Shown here in pieces: positions 23,839 to 47,076 of a stretch of 57,352 nucleotides of DNA. Source of the stretch: Actinomycetota bacterium (GTDB lineage: Bacteria; Actinomycetota; CADDZG01; JAHWKV01; JAOPZY01); contig JAOPZY010000259.1 in NCBI GenBank assembly GCA_025963875.1, forward strand, positions 1-57,352, written 5' to 3'. A program made the position numbers and the translations under genes. The notes beneath the pieces were generated by a model. That model made no database searches, had not been told where the DNA came from, and saw only the letters and a program-made list of their open reading frames with translations. Within the stretch, counting starts at the first letter, position 1. Every line of letters begins with the position of its first letter.

Positions 23839-23910
23839 CTCCGGGACCGCGGCTCGAACGCGGATTTCAGGATCCAAAGTCCTGAGTCCTACCTTTTGGA
23901 CGATCCCGGA
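23839..23910 (-). tRNA. tRNA-Gln (anticodon TTG), CCA not encoded
   Basis: 72-nt cloverleaf: TCCGGGA/TCCCGGA acceptor, GTCC/GGAC D arm, CAGGA-CTTTGGA-TCCTG anticodon arm, CCGCG-TTCGAGC-CGCGG T arm. Confidence 0.96.
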
Positions 23911-40307: not shown

Positions 40308-40763
40308 TCAGCGCTTGCGGGCGTACTTGCCGGTGAGCTGCGTCTGGCCCAGGACCTTGCCCGACAGGGCATAGGGGAGGTCGTCGCGGGGGCTGGCGCC
40401 CTCGGCGAGGCCGCTCGGCTCGCCGAGGGCGAGCAGGGTGAAGATGAAGCGGTGCGCCTTGCCGATCGGGGGGCACGGGCCCGACCAGTCGGTCCGGCCG
40501 TAGTCGTTCTTGCCACCGAGGGAGCCAGCGGGGGCCTTCCCCTCCTCGAGGCCGTCGAGCTCGGGGCTGATGCCGAACAGTATCCACTGCACCAGCGTGC
40601 CGCCCGGGGCGTCCGGGTCCTCGAAGAGCAGGGCGAGCTCGACGGTGCCCTCGGGCACCTCGGTCCAGGTGAGCGGCGGCGAGATGTTGTCCCCGTCGCA
40701 TGTGTGCTGGACGGGCATGAAGGCGTTGTTGGCGAATGCGGGGCTCGTCAGCGTGAATGCCAT
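40308..40763 (-). CDS. YbhB/YbcL Raf-kinase-inhibitor-like (PEBP) protein
   Basis: LTSPAF, SPPLTW, DPDAP, GPCPP and HRF motifs. Confidence 0.92.
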   Translation of the reverse strand: MAFTLTSPAFANNAFMPVQHTCDGDNISPPLTWTEVPEGTVELALLFEDPDAPGGTLVQWILFGISPELDGLEEGKAPAGSLGGKNDYGRTDWSGPCPPIGKAHRFIFTLLALGEPSGLAEGASPRDDLPYALSGKVLGQTQLTGKYARKR

Positions 40764-41003: not shown

Positions 41004-42119
41004 TCACACCGTCAGATAGGGGTCGATGAGGATCCCGAGCTGGAGGGCGAGCATCTGCATCCATGCCTTGCCCACGATCGCCAGGTTTGCGGGGTCGCCC
41101 AGCTCCCCGAACGTGGCCTCCCCGGAGGGGGCCAGGGCGATGGTGTTCAGGGCGGTCATCACCCGCATCTGCACCCAGCCCATCAGGGCGATGGTGAGCT
41201 GCGCGGGGATCTCGAGGTTGGGGTGGTCGCCGGCGTTCCTCACGTGGGAGTTGGCCACCTTCCGCATGTACTCGCCGAAGTTGCCCTGGGTCTCGTAGGG
41301 GTCCTTGGATGTGCGGGTCCACCATCCCGTCAGGGTCGACTTGCGCTTGGCCAGGTGGTCGGCGTCCTGGAAGTAGCCGGCGGACTCAGGCCTGCTGAGC
41401 AGGTACGTGTAGGCGAGCGAGATCACGCCGGTGCCCGCCGGCTCCAGGAGAGCGCCGGTCTCGCCGAGGATGCGCCCCTCGGACATCCCGAATCCGGCCA
41501 GGTCGGCATAGGGATGGAGCTCGGCGTTGTGCCCCCTGCTGTAGTCCCGGGGACCGCTCGGCGAGCCCAGGACCGGCTCGAGCATGATGCCGAGCTGGAG
41601 CATCATCTCGTCCATCCAGACCCCGCCGACGCCGGACAGCGTGATCGTGTCGCTCACATCAGCGAGGTAGGCGAGGATCTCGCCCTCGAGCCAGGCAATC
41701 AGCCCGATCAGCATCTGGGGAGGCAGCGGGACGGTCATCCCAGGGAATGTCGTCCCGCCTCCGACGTGGGTCAGGCCCCGGATGTAGTCGGCGAAGTCCT
41801 CGTCGAACGGCCCGGTCGAGCTGCGGGTGAGCCAGTCCTCGACGACCTCCTTGTCCACGGTCGCCCCGGTCACGCCGAGGCGGGGCAGCCGGGTGGTGAT
41901 GTAGCCGGAGACGGCGTCGGCCATCGCCTTGGTGAACACCCCGAGGTCGCTGCCCAGGTACCGCAGCATTGCCGCCTCGGCGCCTCCGAAGTTGGCGAAG
42001 TCGGCGAGCGGGTTGAAGCCGGGGGTGACGAGGGGCTCTTCACCGAGCGCCAGGTCGATCGTCTTTTCTTCCGTCTCGTCCGGAATCATCCTCGTCTTGG
42101 AACGCTGTGCCACGTGCAT
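41004..42119 (-). CDS. Tandem two-domain protoglobin-like protein
   Basis: Internal duplication (LADFANFG/YADLAGFG; WLTRS/WWTRT; VWMDEMMLQLGIMLEP/AWMQMLALQLGILIDPY); proximal-His-like VANSHVR; GAAGGAGG RBS. Confidence 0.75.
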   Translation of the reverse strand: MHVAQRSKTRMIPDETEEKTIDLALGEEPLVTPGFNPLADFANFGGAEAAMLRYLGSDLGVFTKAMADAVSGYITTRLPRLGVTGATVDKEVVEDWLTRSSTGPFDEDFADYIRGLTHVGGGTTFPGMTVPLPPQMLIGLIAWLEGEILAYLADVSDTITLSGVGGVWMDEMMLQLGIMLEPVLGSPSGPRDYSRGHNAELHPYADLAGFGMSEGRILGETGALLEPAGTGVISLAYTYLLSRPESAGYFQDADHLAKRKSTLTGWWTRTSKDPYETQGNFGEYMRKVANSHVRNAGDHPNLEIPAQLTIALMGWVQMRVMTALNTIALAPSGEATFGELGDPANLAIVGKAWMQMLALQLGILIDPYLTV

Positions 42120-42269
42120 CCCTCCTTCTCGGGTTCTTCTCGGGTTGGGGTCGGGCTCGTGTCCGGTCGTCGGGAATTTCCAGGAATTACATCGCGCCGA
42201 ACGTGAGCAGGTATCTGGGGGGTGGGCCGGGAACTGTTGTGGTTTCGATGCCGCGAGTAGTTTTAGCGC

Positions 42270-42467
42270 CCGCTCACCAGAGGAGTCCGGGCCGGTTCTG
42301 CGTTCGCAGCATGTACCCCATATGCCCCATGGAAACCTCCCCTCAGGCCCTTCAGGGCCGTTGTGCTGGGGCCGGCACCGCAGTAAGCTTGAGGCAGTCG
42401 GGGCTACCCTGCGGGGTCGGCCTAGATTGCGAAGGGTCCGTCTGGCCGGGCGGACCCTTCTCCTTTT
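42270..42467 (+). ncRNA. Candidate structured small RNA (rod-like, 6S/Ms1-like architecture)
   Basis: 42284-42301 pairs with 42411-42428 (17 of 18 positions, five G.U); inner helices 42324-28/42400-04 and 42341-47/42388-94; upstream TAGTTT -10; downstream terminator. Confidence 0.55.
42431..42467 (+). terminator. Intrinsic terminator
   Basis: GAAGGGTCCG..CGGACCCTTC 10-bp perfect stem followed by TCCTTTT; no plus-strand gene upstream. Confidence 0.7.
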
Positions 42468-42760
42468 CCGGTCGTCTCGTTCGTCGGGTGGTCAATTACC
42501 TCTCGCCCACTATAGGCAATGGTGATTACGGTTCGGTTACCGGCCCGTAAAAACTCCTGTCGTTTTTGGGCGCTTCCTGACGCTTCTCTCCTCCTTTCGG
42601 ATCCTCGCTTCGTACTGGGCGCACCCCTCGAACCACCCACCCCGCCCACGTAGTCCTTTTCGGTGCCTGTGCACCTCCCGGTGTGGTGCGTACGCGGCAT
42701 GCGCCGCGCCCGGTGGGGGCCGATGTAGTAGCTGAGAGCAACCGAGGGTCCTGGTCCCAG

Positions 42761-42859
42761 GGCCTCTCGACAAAGGCAAACCCGGGGTGACCCGGGGACG
42801 CAAAGTCATGGACCTCCCGCCCACCTTCGCGGCAGGCCGCCAGACCGCCGAAGGAGGCC
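42761..42859 (+). promoter_or_regulatory. c-di-GMP-I (GEMM-I) riboswitch 1
   Basis: GGCAAACCCGGG-GTGA-CCCGGGGACGCAAAG P2 with GNRA loop; P3 GTCATGG..CCAGAC; P1 GGCCTC/GAGGCC covers the RBS. Confidence 0.9.
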
Positions 42860-42863
42860 ACCC

Positions 42864-43631
42864 GTGAAGCGCGCCCGGACCGTTCGTAGCCTCATGATCG
42901 CCGGCACGATGGGAGCGGTTGCGCTCCAGAGCGTCATCCCCGCCTCCGCAGCCAACGCCGGCGCCGAGTCGTGCTTCGTCTCGGCGATCAACGCCGCCCG
43001 CTCCTCGGCGGGCGTCGCGCCGGTCGGCGCCAACGGCGACCTCCTCGGGGTTGCCCGGGTCTGGTCAGGCACCATGGCGAGCGCCGGCCACATCTTCCAC
43101 AACCCCGCCATCGCGGACCTCGCCCCGTCCAACTGGGAGTCCCTCGGCGAGAACGTCGGCGTCGGCCCGACGTGTGCCAAAATCGCCCAGGCGTTCATGA
43201 ACTCGCCCGAGCACCGCAGGAACATCCTCGACCCGTCCTACTCATCGGTGGGCCTCGGCGTCGTCGACGCCCCCGGTGGCGTGATGTACGTCACGGAGGA
43301 CTTCATGGGCACCGGCGGCGCCCCTGCGCACGTCGCCCCCGCCCCCGCCCCGGTCAAGGCCGCCCCGGCCCCCGCCCCCGTCAAAGCACCCCCCGCCCCG
43401 GCCCCAGTAAAGGCCGCCCCCGCCCCAGCCTCCATCGCCGTCCCCAAGCCGGCCCCGCAGCCCACCCCAGCGCCGGCCCCCGCGCTTGTCGTGCCCACCG
43501 CCATGCCGATCGTGGACCGGACCCTCATCGTCCGGGGCGACCTGACCCCCCACGACGCCCCGGCCGCCGGCCTTCACGGGGGCGTCCTCGGTGGCGTCGT
43601 CAAGGCCCTCGGTGCCTTCTTCGCCAAGTAA
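42864..43631 (+). CDS. Secreted CAP (SCP/PR-1) domain protein with Pro/Ala-rich tail
   Basis: Signal peptide; INAAR, HIFHN, GENVG, FMNSPEHRRNIL, YVTEDF. Confidence 0.92.
   Translation: MKRARTVRSLMIAGTMGAVALQSVIPASAANAGAESCFVSAINAARSSAGVAPVGANGDLLGVARVWSGTMASAGHIFHNPAIADLAPSNWESLGENVGVGPTCAKIAQAFMNSPEHRRNILDPSYSSVGLGVVDAPGGVMYVTEDFMGTGGAPAHVAPAPAPVKAAPAPAPVKAPPAPAPVKAAPAPASIAVPKPAPQPTPAPAPALVVPTAMPIVDRTLIVRGDLTPHDAPAAGLHGGVLGGVVKALGAFFAK
43335..43428 (+). repeat. In-frame 27-bp tandem repeats encoding (A/P)PAPAPVKA x3
   Basis: Protein reads APAPAPVKAAPAPAPVKAPPAPAPVKAAPAP. Confidence 0.8.
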
Positions 43632-43667
43632 CCCATCTCCTCACTCTCCTTTGCAGCCGGGAGCTCT

Positions 43668-43702
43668 CGGCCGGGCGGCGGACTCCGCCTGCCCGGCCGT
43701 TT
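43668..43702 (+). terminator. Probable terminator between the two CAP cassettes
   Basis: CGGCCGGGCGGCGG-ACT-CCGCCTGCCCGGCCG followed by TTT. Confidence 0.55.
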
Positions 43703-43835
43703 GCACGTGCCGCTGGGCGTCGCATCCCCCAACGGGGGTCCTCCTCCGGCCGCCGTTTTGATACCGGCGGGCCATGGAGCCCCCGGGTTGCAGTGCCGAT
43801 GTACTGGGTGAAGCACCCGAGGGTCCTGATCCCAG

Positions 43836-43934
43836 GGCCTCTGCGAAAAAGGCAAACCCGGGGCGACCCGGGGACGCAAAGTCATGGACCTCCCGCCCAG
43901 CTCGCGGAAGGCTGCCAGACCGCCAAAGGAGGCC
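43836..43934 (+). promoter_or_regulatory. c-di-GMP-I (GEMM-I) riboswitch 2
   Basis: GGCAAACCCGGG-GCGA-CCCGGGGACGCAAAGTCATGGACCT..AGGCTGCCAGACCGCC; P1 GGCCTC/GAGGCC covers the RBS. Confidence 0.88.
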
Positions 43935-43937
43935 AGC

Positions 43938-44762
43938 TTGAAGCACCCCCGGGCAGTCCGGAGCCTGATGATCGCCGGCACCATGGCGGCGGTTGCGCTG
44001 CACAACCTCCTCCCCGCCTCGGCATCCCCCGCCGACGAGGAGTCCTGCTTCGCCTCGGCCATCAACTCCGCCCGGACCGCGGCGGGCGTCGCCCCCCTCT
44101 CCATCCAGGGCGACCTGCTCCGGATCTCCCGGGTCTGGTCGCAGACCATGGCGACGGCGGGCCACATCTTCCACAACACCAACATCGTGAACCTCGTCCC
44201 GTCCAACTGGCAGACAGTCGGCGAGAACGTCGGCGTGGGCCCCACCTGCGACTCCATCGCCCAGGCATTCATGAACTCGCCGGAGCACAAGAAAAACATC
44301 CTCGACCCGGCGTTCACGACGGTGGGCGTCGGCGTGGTCGACTCCTCGGATGGCACCGTCTGGGTCACCGAGGACTTCATGGGGACGGGTGCCGCCCTCC
44401 CCGCCCCGGTCGTGGCAAGGCCGACGCCCCCCAAGGTCACCGTCCCGGAGCCAAAGGTGACGACCCCGGCCCCAAAAACCGTCCTGGTCGCTCCGTCCCC
44501 GCACCACACAGAGCCGGCACCCCCCGCAAAGCCCAGGCTGTCCGTCCCCGCCCTCGCCCCGTCGCCAAGCCACGTCACGGTCGTTGAGAAGCCCACCCCC
44601 CGGCCCTCGGCGACGCCGATCCCCCTCGCCACGCCGATCCTCGACCAGATCGTGACGATCCCCGGCGACAAGGTCCCCGGCGCCGCTCCCACCGCCGGCC
44701 CCGCCCATCCCAGCCGCGGCGTCTTCTCCGCCATCGGTTCCTTCTTCTCTCACCTCCTTTAG
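43938..44762 (+). CDS. Secreted CAP domain protein, paralogue with Pro/Thr-rich tail
   Basis: TTG start aligned with the GTG of the first paralogue, after AAGGAGG; INSAR, HIFHN, GENVG, FMNSPEHKKNIL. Confidence 0.9.
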   Translation: MKHPRAVRSLMIAGTMAAVALHNLLPASASPADEESCFASAINSARTAAGVAPLSIQGDLLRISRVWSQTMATAGHIFHNTNIVNLVPSNWQTVGENVGVGPTCDSIAQAFMNSPEHKKNILDPAFTTVGVGVVDSSDGTVWVTEDFMGTGAALPAPVVARPTPPKVTVPEPKVTTPAPKTVLVAPSPHHTEPAPPAKPRLSVPALAPSPSHVTVVEKPTPRPSATPIPLATPILDQIVTIPGDKVPGAAPTAGPAHPSRGVFSAIGSFFSHLL

Positions 44763-44870
44763 GTCCGGGATCCTCCCGTCTAGGTCCTGATCCTCCGTCC
44801 CCACGGGCCCCCCAAGCCCAGGGGGAGGCGAGGCGTGCGCTGCTCGGGCGTGGTGTGCTCAAATGCCGTC

Positions 44871-45674
44871 ATGCCCGAGCGGTGGCGCGTCGAGCCGGGG
44901 AAGCCGGTGAGGCTGGAGAGCATCGATCCCTCCTCGACGCCCGGGGCGCCGGGGGGCAAGGCCGAGACGGTGGCCACGCTGCCCGCCTTCCATGAGCGGC
45001 TCGCCGCCCTGCAGGAGCGCCTGTGGGCGGAGCACCGCCGGTCGCTGCTGGTGGTGCTCCAGGCCCTCGACGCCGGCGGCAAGGACGGCACCGTCCGCCA
45101 CGTCTTCCGGGGCGTCAACCCCCAGGGGACGACGGTCACGTCCTTCAAGGTGCCGGTGGGCGAGGAGGTGGAGCACGACTTCCTCTGGCGGGTCCACCGG
45201 GCGGCGCCCGCCACCGGCGAGATCGGTATCTTCAACCGCTCGCACTACGAGGACGTCCTTGCCGTCCGGGTGCTGGGCCTCGCGCCGGAGAAGGTGTGGA
45301 AGGCCCGCTACGACCTGATCAATGCCTTCGAGCAGACCCTCCACCATGGCGGGACCACCATCGTCAAGATCTACCTGCACATCTCCAAGGAGGAGCAGCG
45401 CCGCCGTCTGCAGGCCCGCCTCGACGACCCCGACAAGCGCTGGAAGTTCTCCGCCGCGGATCTCGAGGCCCTCCGGCACTGGGACGAGTACCGGGAGGCC
45501 TACGAGGATGCGCTCGTGAAGACCTCGACCGCGATCGCGCCCTGGTACGTCATCCCCGCCGACCGCAAGTGGTACCGCAACTGGGTCGTCAGCCGGATCC
45601 TCGTCAAGACCCTGCGCAGGATGGACCCCCGGTATCCCCAGCCGATGGAGCACCTCCCGGCCACGATCGAATAG
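44871..45674 (+). CDS. ppk2: Polyphosphate kinase 2 family protein
   Basis: LQALDAGGKDG, HDFLWR, FNRSHYEDVL, KRWKF and PWYVIPADRKW motifs. Confidence 0.93.
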   Translation: MPERWRVEPGKPVRLESIDPSSTPGAPGGKAETVATLPAFHERLAALQERLWAEHRRSLLVVLQALDAGGKDGTVRHVFRGVNPQGTTVTSFKVPVGEEVEHDFLWRVHRAAPATGEIGIFNRSHYEDVLAVRVLGLAPEKVWKARYDLINAFEQTLHHGGTTIVKIYLHISKEEQRRRLQARLDDPDKRWKFSAADLEALRHWDEYREAYEDALVKTSTAIAPWYVIPADRKWYRNWVVSRILVKTLRRMDPRYPQPMEHLPATIE

Positions 45675-45798: not shown

Positions 45799-47076
45799 AT
45801 GGTGGAGAAGTCGACGGTCGACAAGAAGCAGCCGGAGCTCTACCCCAAGCTGAAGCGGGTCGACCCCAGGATCCTGAAGCGCGCGAGCCGGATGACCCCC
45901 GATGTCGAGGCCGCCGACCGGGCCCGCCTGGACGCGCTGGCAGAGGTCGGACCGGGCCAGGCAGTCCTCAGCATCTACGTCAACCTCGACCCCAGCCAGT
46001 TCCCCACGCCCCACCAACGCCAGTCGGAGGTCGTCTCCCTCGCGGACCAGGCGGCGAACCGGGTCGAGGAGGTGGAGGACGAGCACGACCGCAAGGAGCT
46101 CCGCAAGGACGTCCAGAAGGTCCGGTCGTGGCTGCTCGAGCACTCCGAGTGGGACGACGGCGCCCGGGGCGTCGCCATCTTCGTCTCCAACCGCCGGGAC
46201 CTCTTCGAGATCCTGAAGCTGGCCGTGCCGGTGGCGTCGCTCGTCGCCGTCGAGGAGACCCCCTACGTCGAGCCCCTGACCGCGCTGGCCCCCCGCCCGG
46301 CTGTCTGCGTGGCGCTCATCGACCGGGCGAGGACGAGGATCTTCTGCGGGGACGAGGACGGGCTGGAGGAGGTCATCCACGAGCGGGACGACGACGTCCC
46401 GGGCCGCCACGACCAGGGCGGCTGGTCACAGGGCCGCTACCAGCACCACGTCGAGGACCACGTCGACCGCCACCTCAACGACGTCGCCGCCGAGCTCCTC
46501 GAGCTCTACAAGGAGGGTCGGGTCGAGCGCCTGGTGATCGGGTCCACCGAGGAGATGCTGCCGAGGATCCTCGACCACCTCCACGCCTATCTCCGGGAGC
46601 GCTTCGCCGGGCGGATCGACGTCGACGTCAACACCGCCAACGCGGACGAGGTACGGCACCTGGTCGCCCCCATCCTGGAGGAGGAGGACCGGCGGAGGGA
46701 GGCCGAGCTCTTCGAGCGCCTCCGCCGCGAGCTGGCGGTCGGGGGCAGGGCCGCCTACGGTCTCGAGGGCACCCTGGCGGCGTTGAACGAGGCAAGGGTG
46801 GAGGTGCTGTTTGCCAAGCCGGACCTGGTGGAGCCCGGTGTCTTCTGCCCCAAGTGCGGATGGCTCGGCGTACCGCCCCAGCCCGGGGGCAGAAATCCTC
46901 TCGCTGAGGCCGCCGGTCCGGAGTGCCCGTTGGATGGGGAAGCGCTCGAGCACACGGACAACATCGTGGAGAAGGCCGTGGAGCGGGCGATCCAGCTGTC
47001 GGCGGAGGTCTGGATGCCCAGGTTCCAGGACGACCTCGACCGGCTCGGCGGTATCGCAGCACTTCTGCGCTTCTAG
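45799..47076 (+). CDS. Bacterial archaeo-eukaryotic release factor (baeRF / Vms1-like) protein
   Basis: VLSIYVNLDP, GVAIF, catalytic-loop-like GRHDQGGWSQGRYQ, C-terminal CPKC..CP and GGIAALLRF eRF1 domain-3 ending. Confidence 0.82.
   Translation: MVEKSTVDKKQPELYPKLKRVDPRILKRASRMTPDVEAADRARLDALAEVGPGQAVLSIYVNLDPSQFPTPHQRQSEVVSLADQAANRVEEVEDEHDRKELRKDVQKVRSWLLEHSEWDDGARGVAIFVSNRRDLFEILKLAVPVASLVAVEETPYVEPLTALAPRPAVCVALIDRARTRIFCGDEDGLEEVIHERDDDVPGRHDQGGWSQGRYQHHVEDHVDRHLNDVAAELLELYKEGRVERLVIGSTEEMLPRILDHLHAYLRERFAGRIDVDVNTANADEVRHLVAPILEEEDRRREAELFERLRRELAVGGRAAYGLEGTLAALNEARVEVLFAKPDLVEPGVFCPKCGWLGVPPQPGGRNPLAEAAGPECPLDGEALEHTDNIVEKAVERAIQLSAEVWMPRFQDDLDRLGGIAALLRF

Follow-up and report, generated by a model that had tools for sequence, protein, structure and literature searches.

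Paired c-di-GMP-I-type aptamers as probable translational OFF switches of two CAP-domain genes in an uncultured soil actinobacterium

The c-di-GMP-I (GEMM-I) riboswitches, collected in Rfam family RF01051, are typified by Vc2 of Vibrio cholerae, in which G20, A47 and C92 contact the ligand, cyclic di-GMP (c-di-GMP), according to the passages on ligand contacts in PMC4744006 and PMC5888326. Passages of PMC9481103 hold that an A-for-G change at the G-contacting position marks the binders of c-AMP-GMP, and count 347 doublets and 12 triplets of tandem c-di-GMP-I riboswitches. The present analysis concerns two aptamers of this clan in the window, that is, the whole 57,352-nucleotide (nt) stretch of Actinomycetota bacterium DNA that was analysed (assembly GCA_025963875.1, contig JAOPZY010000259.1), where each aptamer stands in the leader of a gene for a secreted CAP-domain protein. 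The region 42719-44762 consists of two head-to-tail cassettes of the same build, each running from a stretch that starts GCCGATGTA through the hairpin H0 (23 nt), an aptamer (about 87 nt), the Shine-Dalgarno (SD) sequence GGAGG and a start codon into a gene of 255 or 274 codons, with a leader of about 125 nt for each CAP gene. It is probable that these aptamers act as two independent translational OFF switches, one per CAP gene, built from the following elements:

42744..42766 (+): hairpin H0 of cassette 1, GAGGGTCCTG-GTCC-CAGGGCCTC, with 5' arm GAGGGUCCUG, loop GUCC and 3' arm CAGGGCCUC
42761..42766 (+): anti-SD GGCCUC of cassette 1, common to the H0 3' arm and the 5' strand of the extended helix P1
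42766..42853 (+): aptamer 1, c-di-GMP-I clan (RF03167, 65.0 bits, E 3.9e-13, cut-off 59)
42853..42859 (+): SD GGAGG (42853-42857) within GAGGCC (42854-42859), the 3' strand of the extended P1 and complement of GGCCUC
42864..43631 (+): CAP gene 1, GTG start, 255 amino acids (PF00188, 54.3 bits, E 2.9e-14)
43819..43841 (+): hairpin H0 of cassette 2, GAGGGTCCTG-ATCC-CAGGGCCTC, loop AUCC, in the same alignment columns as the H0 of cassette 1
43842..43928 (+): aptamer 2, c-di-GMP-I clan (RF03167, 60.5 bits, E 7.5e-12, cut-off 59)
43928..43934 (+): SD GGAGG (43928-43932) within GAGGCC (43929-43934), the 3' strand of the extended P1, pairing with GGCCUC at 43836-43841
43938..44762 (+): CAP gene 2, TTG start, 274 amino acids (PF00188, 58.4 bits, E 1.6e-15)

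In the proposed mechanism, the 5'-proximal hairpin H0 would form when ligand is absent and would hold the anti-SD GGCCUC in its 3' arm CAGGGCCUC, leaving the SD GGAGG free and allowing the secreted CAP protein to be made. Binding of c-di-GMP would stabilise the closing helix P1, which would extend outward through GGCCUC:GAGGCC, pull that strand away from H0 and bury the SD 5-6 nt before the start codon, blocking initiation. The CAP proteins would accordingly be products of cells with low c-di-GMP. The complementarities on which this scheme depends are present in both leaders. The sequence AAGGAGGCC occurs at 42851-42859, 4 nt 5' of the GTG at 42864, and again at 43926-43934, 3 nt 5' of the TTG at 43938, in agreement with the initial annotation of this DNA, which had placed the SD inside the 3' strand of P1 and 3-4 nt before the start codon; the spacing from GGAGG itself to the start codon is 6 nt in the first leader and 5 nt in the second. 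GGCCUC adjoins the inner P1 pairs on their 5' side and is the exact complement of GAGGCC in both copies, so that the closing helix of the aptamer can extend by six pairs across the SD, and since GGCCUC also ends the 3' arm of H0, the hairpin and the extended P1 are mutually exclusive.

Comparative evidence was obtained with a model of four near-identical leaders, two from the window and two from metagenome orthologues, to which 20 leaders of family and metagenome-contig origin were aligned. A MAFFT alignment of the leaders was discarded, the hairpin arms being mis-registered in it, and model-based alignments were used instead. Across the 20 sequences, 92.4% of the H0 cells are paired, and both partners vary in 8 of 9 pairs. 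A recount on 15 rows, from which L018, L020, L023, L176 and L181 were dropped as having no evident hairpin and being forced into the alignment, gives 95.5% paired cells and 7 of 9 pairs changing on both sides, in 10 cells. With either set none of 500 shuffles reaches the observed pairing and slid partners pair in 25-59% of cells, shuffle counts that are not probabilities, the sequences being related and structure-fitted. Different H0 stems occur in at least three lineages, with variants that include GAAGGCCCUG...CAGGGCCUC and GAGGGCUC...GAGCCUC. The competing hairpins that had been proposed upstream of each aptamer, at 42744-42766 and 43819-43841, are therefore not only present in the window but covary in its relatives.

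The pairing of the SD is conserved in another manner. In the extended P1, 78.5% of cells are paired, compared with 23-58% in slid controls, and the four inner pairs of the extension (CCUC:GAGG) are kept in 14-17 of the 16-19 sequences represented at those columns. In relatives of the L028 type, the SD pairing extends over nine base pairs and reaches the start codon. GGAGG lies directly 3' of the aptamer in both window copies and at 16 of 16 metagenome loci, and it recurs in all 18 distinct aligned leaders of family f1 and the metagenome loci, one of which reads GGAGA. Conservation and position, rather than covariation, thus support the extended P1/SD helix, and since the pairing is conserved and does not covary, we infer the OFF direction from the anatomy of the leader.

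The same arrangement recurs beyond the closest relatives. A strict definition of the hairpin (at least 5 contiguous pairs, ends no more than 9 nt from the junction and a 3' arm with a Watson-Crick complement of the SD region of at least 4 nt) was applied to 69 distinct leaders, from which 12 without an SD and start codon close behind the aptamer were dropped and 57 were kept. Hairpins of this kind were found in 15 of 22 leaders from f1 and the metagenomes (shuffles predict 0.4), in 16 of 22 leaders of family f4 (0.3 predicted) and in none of 13 from families f2 and f3 (0.1 predicted). The f4 leaders stand before unrelated genes, among them genes for response regulators and assorted secreted proteins.

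Folding calculations are consistent with two competing states. The H0 of copy 1 folds at -17.4 kcal/mol (z -3.46), with none of 200 shuffles as good, and when the 5' arm of H0 is removed, the minimum free energy (MFE) structure closes the GGCCUC/GAGGCC helix in both copies. With the aptamer helices forced, the H0 and extended-P1 ensembles differ by 4.5 kcal/mol in copy 1 and 1.7 kcal/mol in copy 2, constrained energies that show only the closeness of the two states; being close, they could plausibly be decided between by ligand binding. In copy 1, the H0 state leaves three of the five SD bases with an unpaired probability of about 0.9, whereas the P1-extended state lowers this probability to about 0 at four of the five.

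Several results weigh against a switch of this kind and bear on its RNA, its comparative support and its energetics. No RNA run was listed for the window interval 42600-44100. Because the covariation alignments were made by fitting to a model that includes the hairpin, they are biased toward it, and the f4 loci were the top matches of a hairpin-containing model, which biases the count of 16 of 22 upward. None of the pairs of the extended P1 shows a two-sided change, its observed pairing is attained by 33 of 500 shuffles, and its outer two pairs fail in 6-7 of 17 relatives; moreover, the SD is constrained by the ribosome in any case, so that conservation of its partner is the only support for the extension. 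A fixed-window comparison of duplexes with shuffles, too crude for short hairpins and kept as a negative-leaning control, found that 19 of 60 leaders beat 95% of shuffles for the anti-SD:SD duplex and 9 of 60 for the duplex of SD mimic and anti-SD, and the window copies gave p values of 0.053/0.033 and 0.10/0.11. The H0 of copy 2 taken by itself reaches -13.6 kcal/mol (z -1.47), a fold that 19 of 200 shuffles equal; the same copy with forced aptamer helices favours the P1-extended form with no ligand term, and its inner P1 contains one non-standard pair, a C-A mismatch. Finally, folding of the whole leaders gives no significant stability (z -1.44 and -0.83), and the unconstrained MFE structures of both leaders lack the aptamer and pair the SD in other helices; such folds of GC-rich leaders were used as evidence for neither state.

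The best-surviving alternative, which we nevertheless consider unlikely, keeps the aptamers as OFF switches working through the short inner P1 and makes H0 either a constitutive 5'-terminal stem-loop, protecting the mRNA for example, or promoter or operator DNA. Such a role would suit the place of H0, at most about 10 nt from the inferred transcript start, and the covariation, which shows formation of the hairpin only and not its alternation with P1; the copy 2 hairpin alone is also indistinguishable from shuffles, and the CAP leaders L176 and L181 and the leaders of genome G002, if functional at all, do without H0. The metagenome leaders without H0, L176 and L181, are however also without the anti-SD (CCUC), and the H0 3' arm is the sole complement of the SD in the leader and adjoins P1 directly. 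Far above the level in shuffles, leaders of unrelated genes show, in other sequence, the same overlap between the 3' arm of a hairpin, the anti-SD and P1, and the 5' arm of H0 (GAGGG/GAAGG) resembles the SD GGAGG, a likeness expected of a competitor and needless for a stabiliser.

A switch acting mainly on transcription, through Rho-dependent termination or RNA decay after ribosome loss, or an ON switch in which P1 frees the start region, is very unlikely. Neither the sequence nor the terminator scan revealed a terminator between aptamer and start codon, which are separated by just 10-11 nt, and the SD itself lies within the helix that the ligand would stabilise. ON as well as OFF members of the class are known (PMC4744006, PMC11218506). 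Unconstrained folds pair the SD and start codon elsewhere, as where the P2 loop CUUCGCGG of copy 1 pairs with CCGUGAAG, an alternative pairing that is absent in copy 2. Effects of Rho or of decay would in any event be secondary consequences of the same OFF decision.

A cmscan search of the whole window at Rfam gathering thresholds gave three matches, namely the two RF03167 matches given above and an unrelated tRNA gene (23839-23910, - strand, 56.7 bits), with two lower-scoring matches of the same clan left out. A direct search identified these as RF01051, at 58 bits (42765-42852) and 59.1 bits (43841-43927), both above the cut-off of 35. The existence of two c-di-GMP-I-clan aptamers, as initially annotated, is borne out in this way; their assignment to the c-di-GMP-I family proper holds in so far as both pass the RF01051 cut-off, although the best-scoring family is RF03167, known as the GGC variant. 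The aptamer helices covary in the 20 relatives, as seen in a model-fitted alignment in which the paired cells amount to 97.5%, a value that none of 500 shuffles reaches. Helices 2-5 are 100% paired, and two-sided changes occur at 4 of their pairs, of which 3 belong to the first stem and 1 to the second. The first stem-loop ends in a tetraloop of GNRA type (GUGA in copy 1 and GCGA in the other), and both copies have the letters of the inter-helix C-G pair, the C of GAC and the G of a CG/UG bulge.

The G, A and C predicted at the equivalents of Vc2 G20, A47 and C92 are seen in the model alignments of both copies, at 42775/43851, 42802/43878 and 42848/43923 by alignment to the model consensus. 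The G stands in AAAG-G-CAAACC, the A in GACGC-A-AAG and the C in a G-C just 5' of the P1 3' strand. The consensus cores of the two families differ at one position, RF01051 having GACGCAAAg and RF03167 GACGCGAAg, and both window copies read GACGCAAAG at this middle pocket site, with the A of the parent class. We take the 'GGC' in the name of RF03167 to be the three pocket letters. Both copies score as RF03167 members and neither has the G for A in the middle of the pocket, and on the pocket letters the aptamers are best filed under the parent class RF01051 and not as GGC variants. Since the distinguishing letter of the variant is absent, c-di-GMP rather than another ligand stands as the predicted ligand of both aptamers. 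The higher RF03167 scores probably reflect the origin of the RF03167 seed sequences in related bacteria, and the placing of canonical G/A/C aptamers in the GGC variant family by clan competition in Rfam calls for caution in automatic ligand annotation. That the aptamers sense 3',3'-cGAMP or whatever the GGC variants sense is the least probable of the alternatives, for although RF03167 outscores RF01051 in both copies and one related soil contig of another locus (174 nt, run X2, depth 4.2, 5 other differences, too weak a witness) has A at the G20-equivalent site 42775, both copies have the parent-class A where the pocket cores differ and G at the site that separates c-di-GMP from cGAMP binders under the A-for-G rule as worded in a passage of PMC9481103, the variant site is A in all 36 order-level aptamers printed, and the genome of the window encodes c-di-GMP enzymes, with 18 GGDEF-domain matches.

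The downstream genes encode CAP proteins, as had been proposed, both matching PF00188 well above its curated cut-off of 21.1 bits. The program-made list of open reading frames (ORFs) opens gene 2 at an ATG at 43884, inside aptamer 2; the TTG at 43938 is the likely start, because the N-terminus of the protein then aligns with CAP 1 from residue 1 and the metagenome orthologues L183 and L187 retain the TTG. The two proteins are 53% identical overall, and each consists of a signal peptide (MKRARTVRSLMIAGTMGAVALQSVIPASA...), a CAP domain, a Pro/Ala-rich linker and a short hydrophobic C-terminal tail. Both C-termini (43537-43631 and 44650-44762) close with a conserved PI(V/L)D...GD...G(V/L)...(L/I)G(A/S)FF after the Pro-rich linker. 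In distant riboswitch-linked CAP relatives a clear C-terminal membrane helix stands where this tail is found, and the C-terminal segment together with the helix of the relatives suggests tethering to the cell envelope. No sequence match to either protein was found among solved structures at E 0.01 or better. The genome has 6 CAP-domain matches, of which only these 2 have an aptamer.

The two cassettes are best explained by duplication of a promoter, leader and gene, after which each would act independently. Their similarity begins abruptly at GCCGATGTA (42719 and 43795), with 89% identity from there to the start codon and 52% in the 100 nt upstream, while the first 450 coding bases of the CAP genes are 78% identical and share 108 of 150 third codon positions. 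The features that bear on transcription are the following:

42719..42731 (+): conserved leader start of cassette 1, GCCGATGTAGTAG, with a putative -10 element TGTAGT, from the similarity of the cassettes
43668..43699 (+): GC-rich hairpin followed by GUUUG, 3' of the stop codon of CAP gene 1 (fold -38.3 kcal/mol, z -2.58)
43795..43807 (+): conserved leader start of cassette 2, GCCGATGTACTGG, with a putative -10 element, from the similarity of the cassettes

The motif CCGATGTA(G/C)T occurs at equal distance in relatives from the family and from metagenomes, and TGTAGT and TGTACT are possible -10 elements of cassettes 1 and 2; a scan for the sigma-70 consensus found no promoter. The hairpin at 43668..43699, which fails the T-run rule of the terminator scan, may by its predicted fold be a terminator separating the two units. 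We infer two separate transcription units, each beginning a few bases 5' of H0. The initial annotation had spoken of twin riboswitches, and two copies are indeed present, although as duplicated promoter-leader-gene cassettes and not in tandem within one leader. The latter arrangement was considered and rejected, as a whole gene and the GC-rich hairpin lie between the aptamers, each of which has its own promoter-like region. For 42600-44100, 20 DNA runs of 17 studies were listed, and the DNA occurs in soil metagenomes; contigs of four soil runs, which carry no information on transcript starts or ends, differ in the leaders at two positions only, 43843 G>A and 42775 G>A, the second of them in the low-depth contig of another locus mentioned above.

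Upstream, the intergenic region 5' of cassette 1 (entered for window positions 42120-42743) is 744 nt in total and contains a strong terminator-like hairpin at 42431-42460 (+ strand; 13 pairs and a T-rich tail); 5' of this hairpin there is no convincing gene. Divergent from cassette 1 is a gene at 41004-42119 (- strand) for a 371-amino-acid protein with a C-terminal protoglobin domain (PF11563), and a gene for a PEBP-family protein lies at 40308-40763 (- strand). On the other side, a PPK2 polyphosphate kinase is encoded at 44835-45674 (+ strand) and a bacterial eRF1-like protein of baeRF family 10 at 45799-47076 (+ strand). No link to the riboswitches was found for these four neighbouring genes.

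Beyond the window, aptamers of this kind are widespread in the lineage. An RF01051 match is present in 5 of 6 genomes of the family, and 21 of 27 genomes of the order have an RF03167 match with E no higher than 1e-5, 8 of them above its cut-off, in a count that includes the unpublished genomes G026 and G019. The riboswitch class had been described in the initial annotation as best known from Firmicutes and Proteobacteria; it is not exotic in the present lineage, where 99 of 113 genomes of the taxonomic class, many of them unpublished, are matched by our own model with E no higher than 0.001, a single genome having as many as 7 matches; the class-level aptamer matches number roughly 290. The same model gives 168 and 147 bits for the window copies and 112, 94, 91 and 86 bits within family f1, and since no match outside f1 exceeds 69.5 bits, the full leader is a family-level feature. 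At metagenome loci found by the aptamer core alone, the next gene is a CAP gene in 16 of 16 cases; at order-level loci this holds for 12 of 36, in genomes of three families and in some cases with a longer spacer, and of the 25 loci examined at class level a single one has a CAP gene behind it. Among the first 80 loci of a general pattern scan, which are mostly from Chloroflexota, Planctomycetota and Acidimicrobiales and have other platforms, 1 stands before a CAP gene.

Some of the aptamers met in these searches are of separate interest. Loci L051-L129, from public metagenome-assembled genomes of Anaerolineae and other Chloroflexota, have the second-stem sequence AAAGUCAUGG...GCCAGACCGCCGAA in common with the window; 3' of P1 they carry the complement of its 3' strand and then a U-run, a terminator-type platform unlike the translational one of the window. 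The genome of the window has a third aptamer, L004 (G000:C10:22051-22134, - strand; RF01051, 56.4 bits), followed by a long spacer, a small ORF and a 798-amino-acid protein with a GGDEF-domain match, the C-terminal half of which appears by eye to be EAL-like; aptamer and GGDEF protein could form a feedback loop on c-di-GMP turnover. Two further aptamers of that genome, G000:C215:8523-8598 and the partial G000:C76:1-57, have identical sequence, and because the end of C215 and the start of C76 overlap, the genome has 4 distinct aptamers and not 5. The gene behind the C215/C76 aptamer opens with the signal-peptide-like MRITTPIRALIAAGS.

Altered cores were observed in L031-L041 and L049 of family f2 and in L021 of G002 (family f1), where GCAAGCAAAG replaces GGGACGCAAAG and AU replaces AG in the bulge of the second stem; the inter-helix C-G pair, elsewhere invariant, may here have changed on both sides together. 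The f2 aptamers of this type, one of whose genomes is the unpublished G019, precede proteins of about 200 amino acids, and no Pfam family was found for the two such proteins tested. At L020 (G002:C10:27395-27492), an intact CAP-type aptamer and GGAGG are followed by a reading frame that closes at once (ATG AAG ACC TGA), while the remainder still resembles a CAP signal peptide in another frame; the locus may hold a pseudogene, or the sequence an error.

Taken together, these observations allow a broader reading, possible and still tentative, in which the c-di-GMP signalling of this class of bacteria is largely riboswitch-based, one portable module of SD mimic, anti-SD and SD within P1 is reused before unrelated genes, and the oldest and most faithful client of the module in one order is a set of envelope-tethered CAP proteins made only at low c-di-GMP. 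If true, it would provide the first defined regulatory input for bacterial CAP proteins and would point to a role for them at the surface of non-sessile or growth-phase cells. The riboswitch class and the logic of OFF regulation by SD sequestration are already textbook matter; what is modestly new, in an uncultured class of actinobacteria, is the association with CAP genes and a stereotyped module of three strands. The leaders offer a clean, comparatively supported and fully readable c-di-GMP-I platform with strands short enough for direct mutational tests, and the tight link of aptamer and CAP gene makes a second-messenger input a usable handle on the function of bacterial CAP proteins.

In comparison with Vc2, the window aptamers have the same two stem-loops and P1, a GNRA-type tetraloop, the G/A/C contacts and the inter-helix C/G. 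They differ in their host, an uncultured soil lineage of Actinomycetota, in a platform that would be purely translational and made of three strands (SD mimic, anti-SD and SD), the middle one common with P1, and in the genes that they would regulate, which encode secreted CAP-domain proteins; no published link between a c-di-GMP riboswitch and a CAP gene was found in the literature searched. Compared with the GGC variant, RF03167 is the best-scoring Rfam family for both copies and their overall sequence is very near its consensus, but at the site of the A common to the window copies and RF01051 that consensus has a G (GACGC-G-AAg). Like tandem c-di-GMP-I riboswitches, the window has two aptamers of the same class, about 1.1 kb apart; unlike them, each has its own promoter-like region, platform and gene, and a cooperative or 'digital' response is not expected from this arrangement itself. 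The closest likeness is to translational OFF riboswitches that hold the SD in the closing helix, since here too the SD lies in or beside the P1 3' strand and an upstream anti-sequestor would compete for the anti-SD. Sequestration of the SD by the closing helix of an aptamer is a general design found in several riboswitch classes, and from it the two leaders differ in nothing essential.

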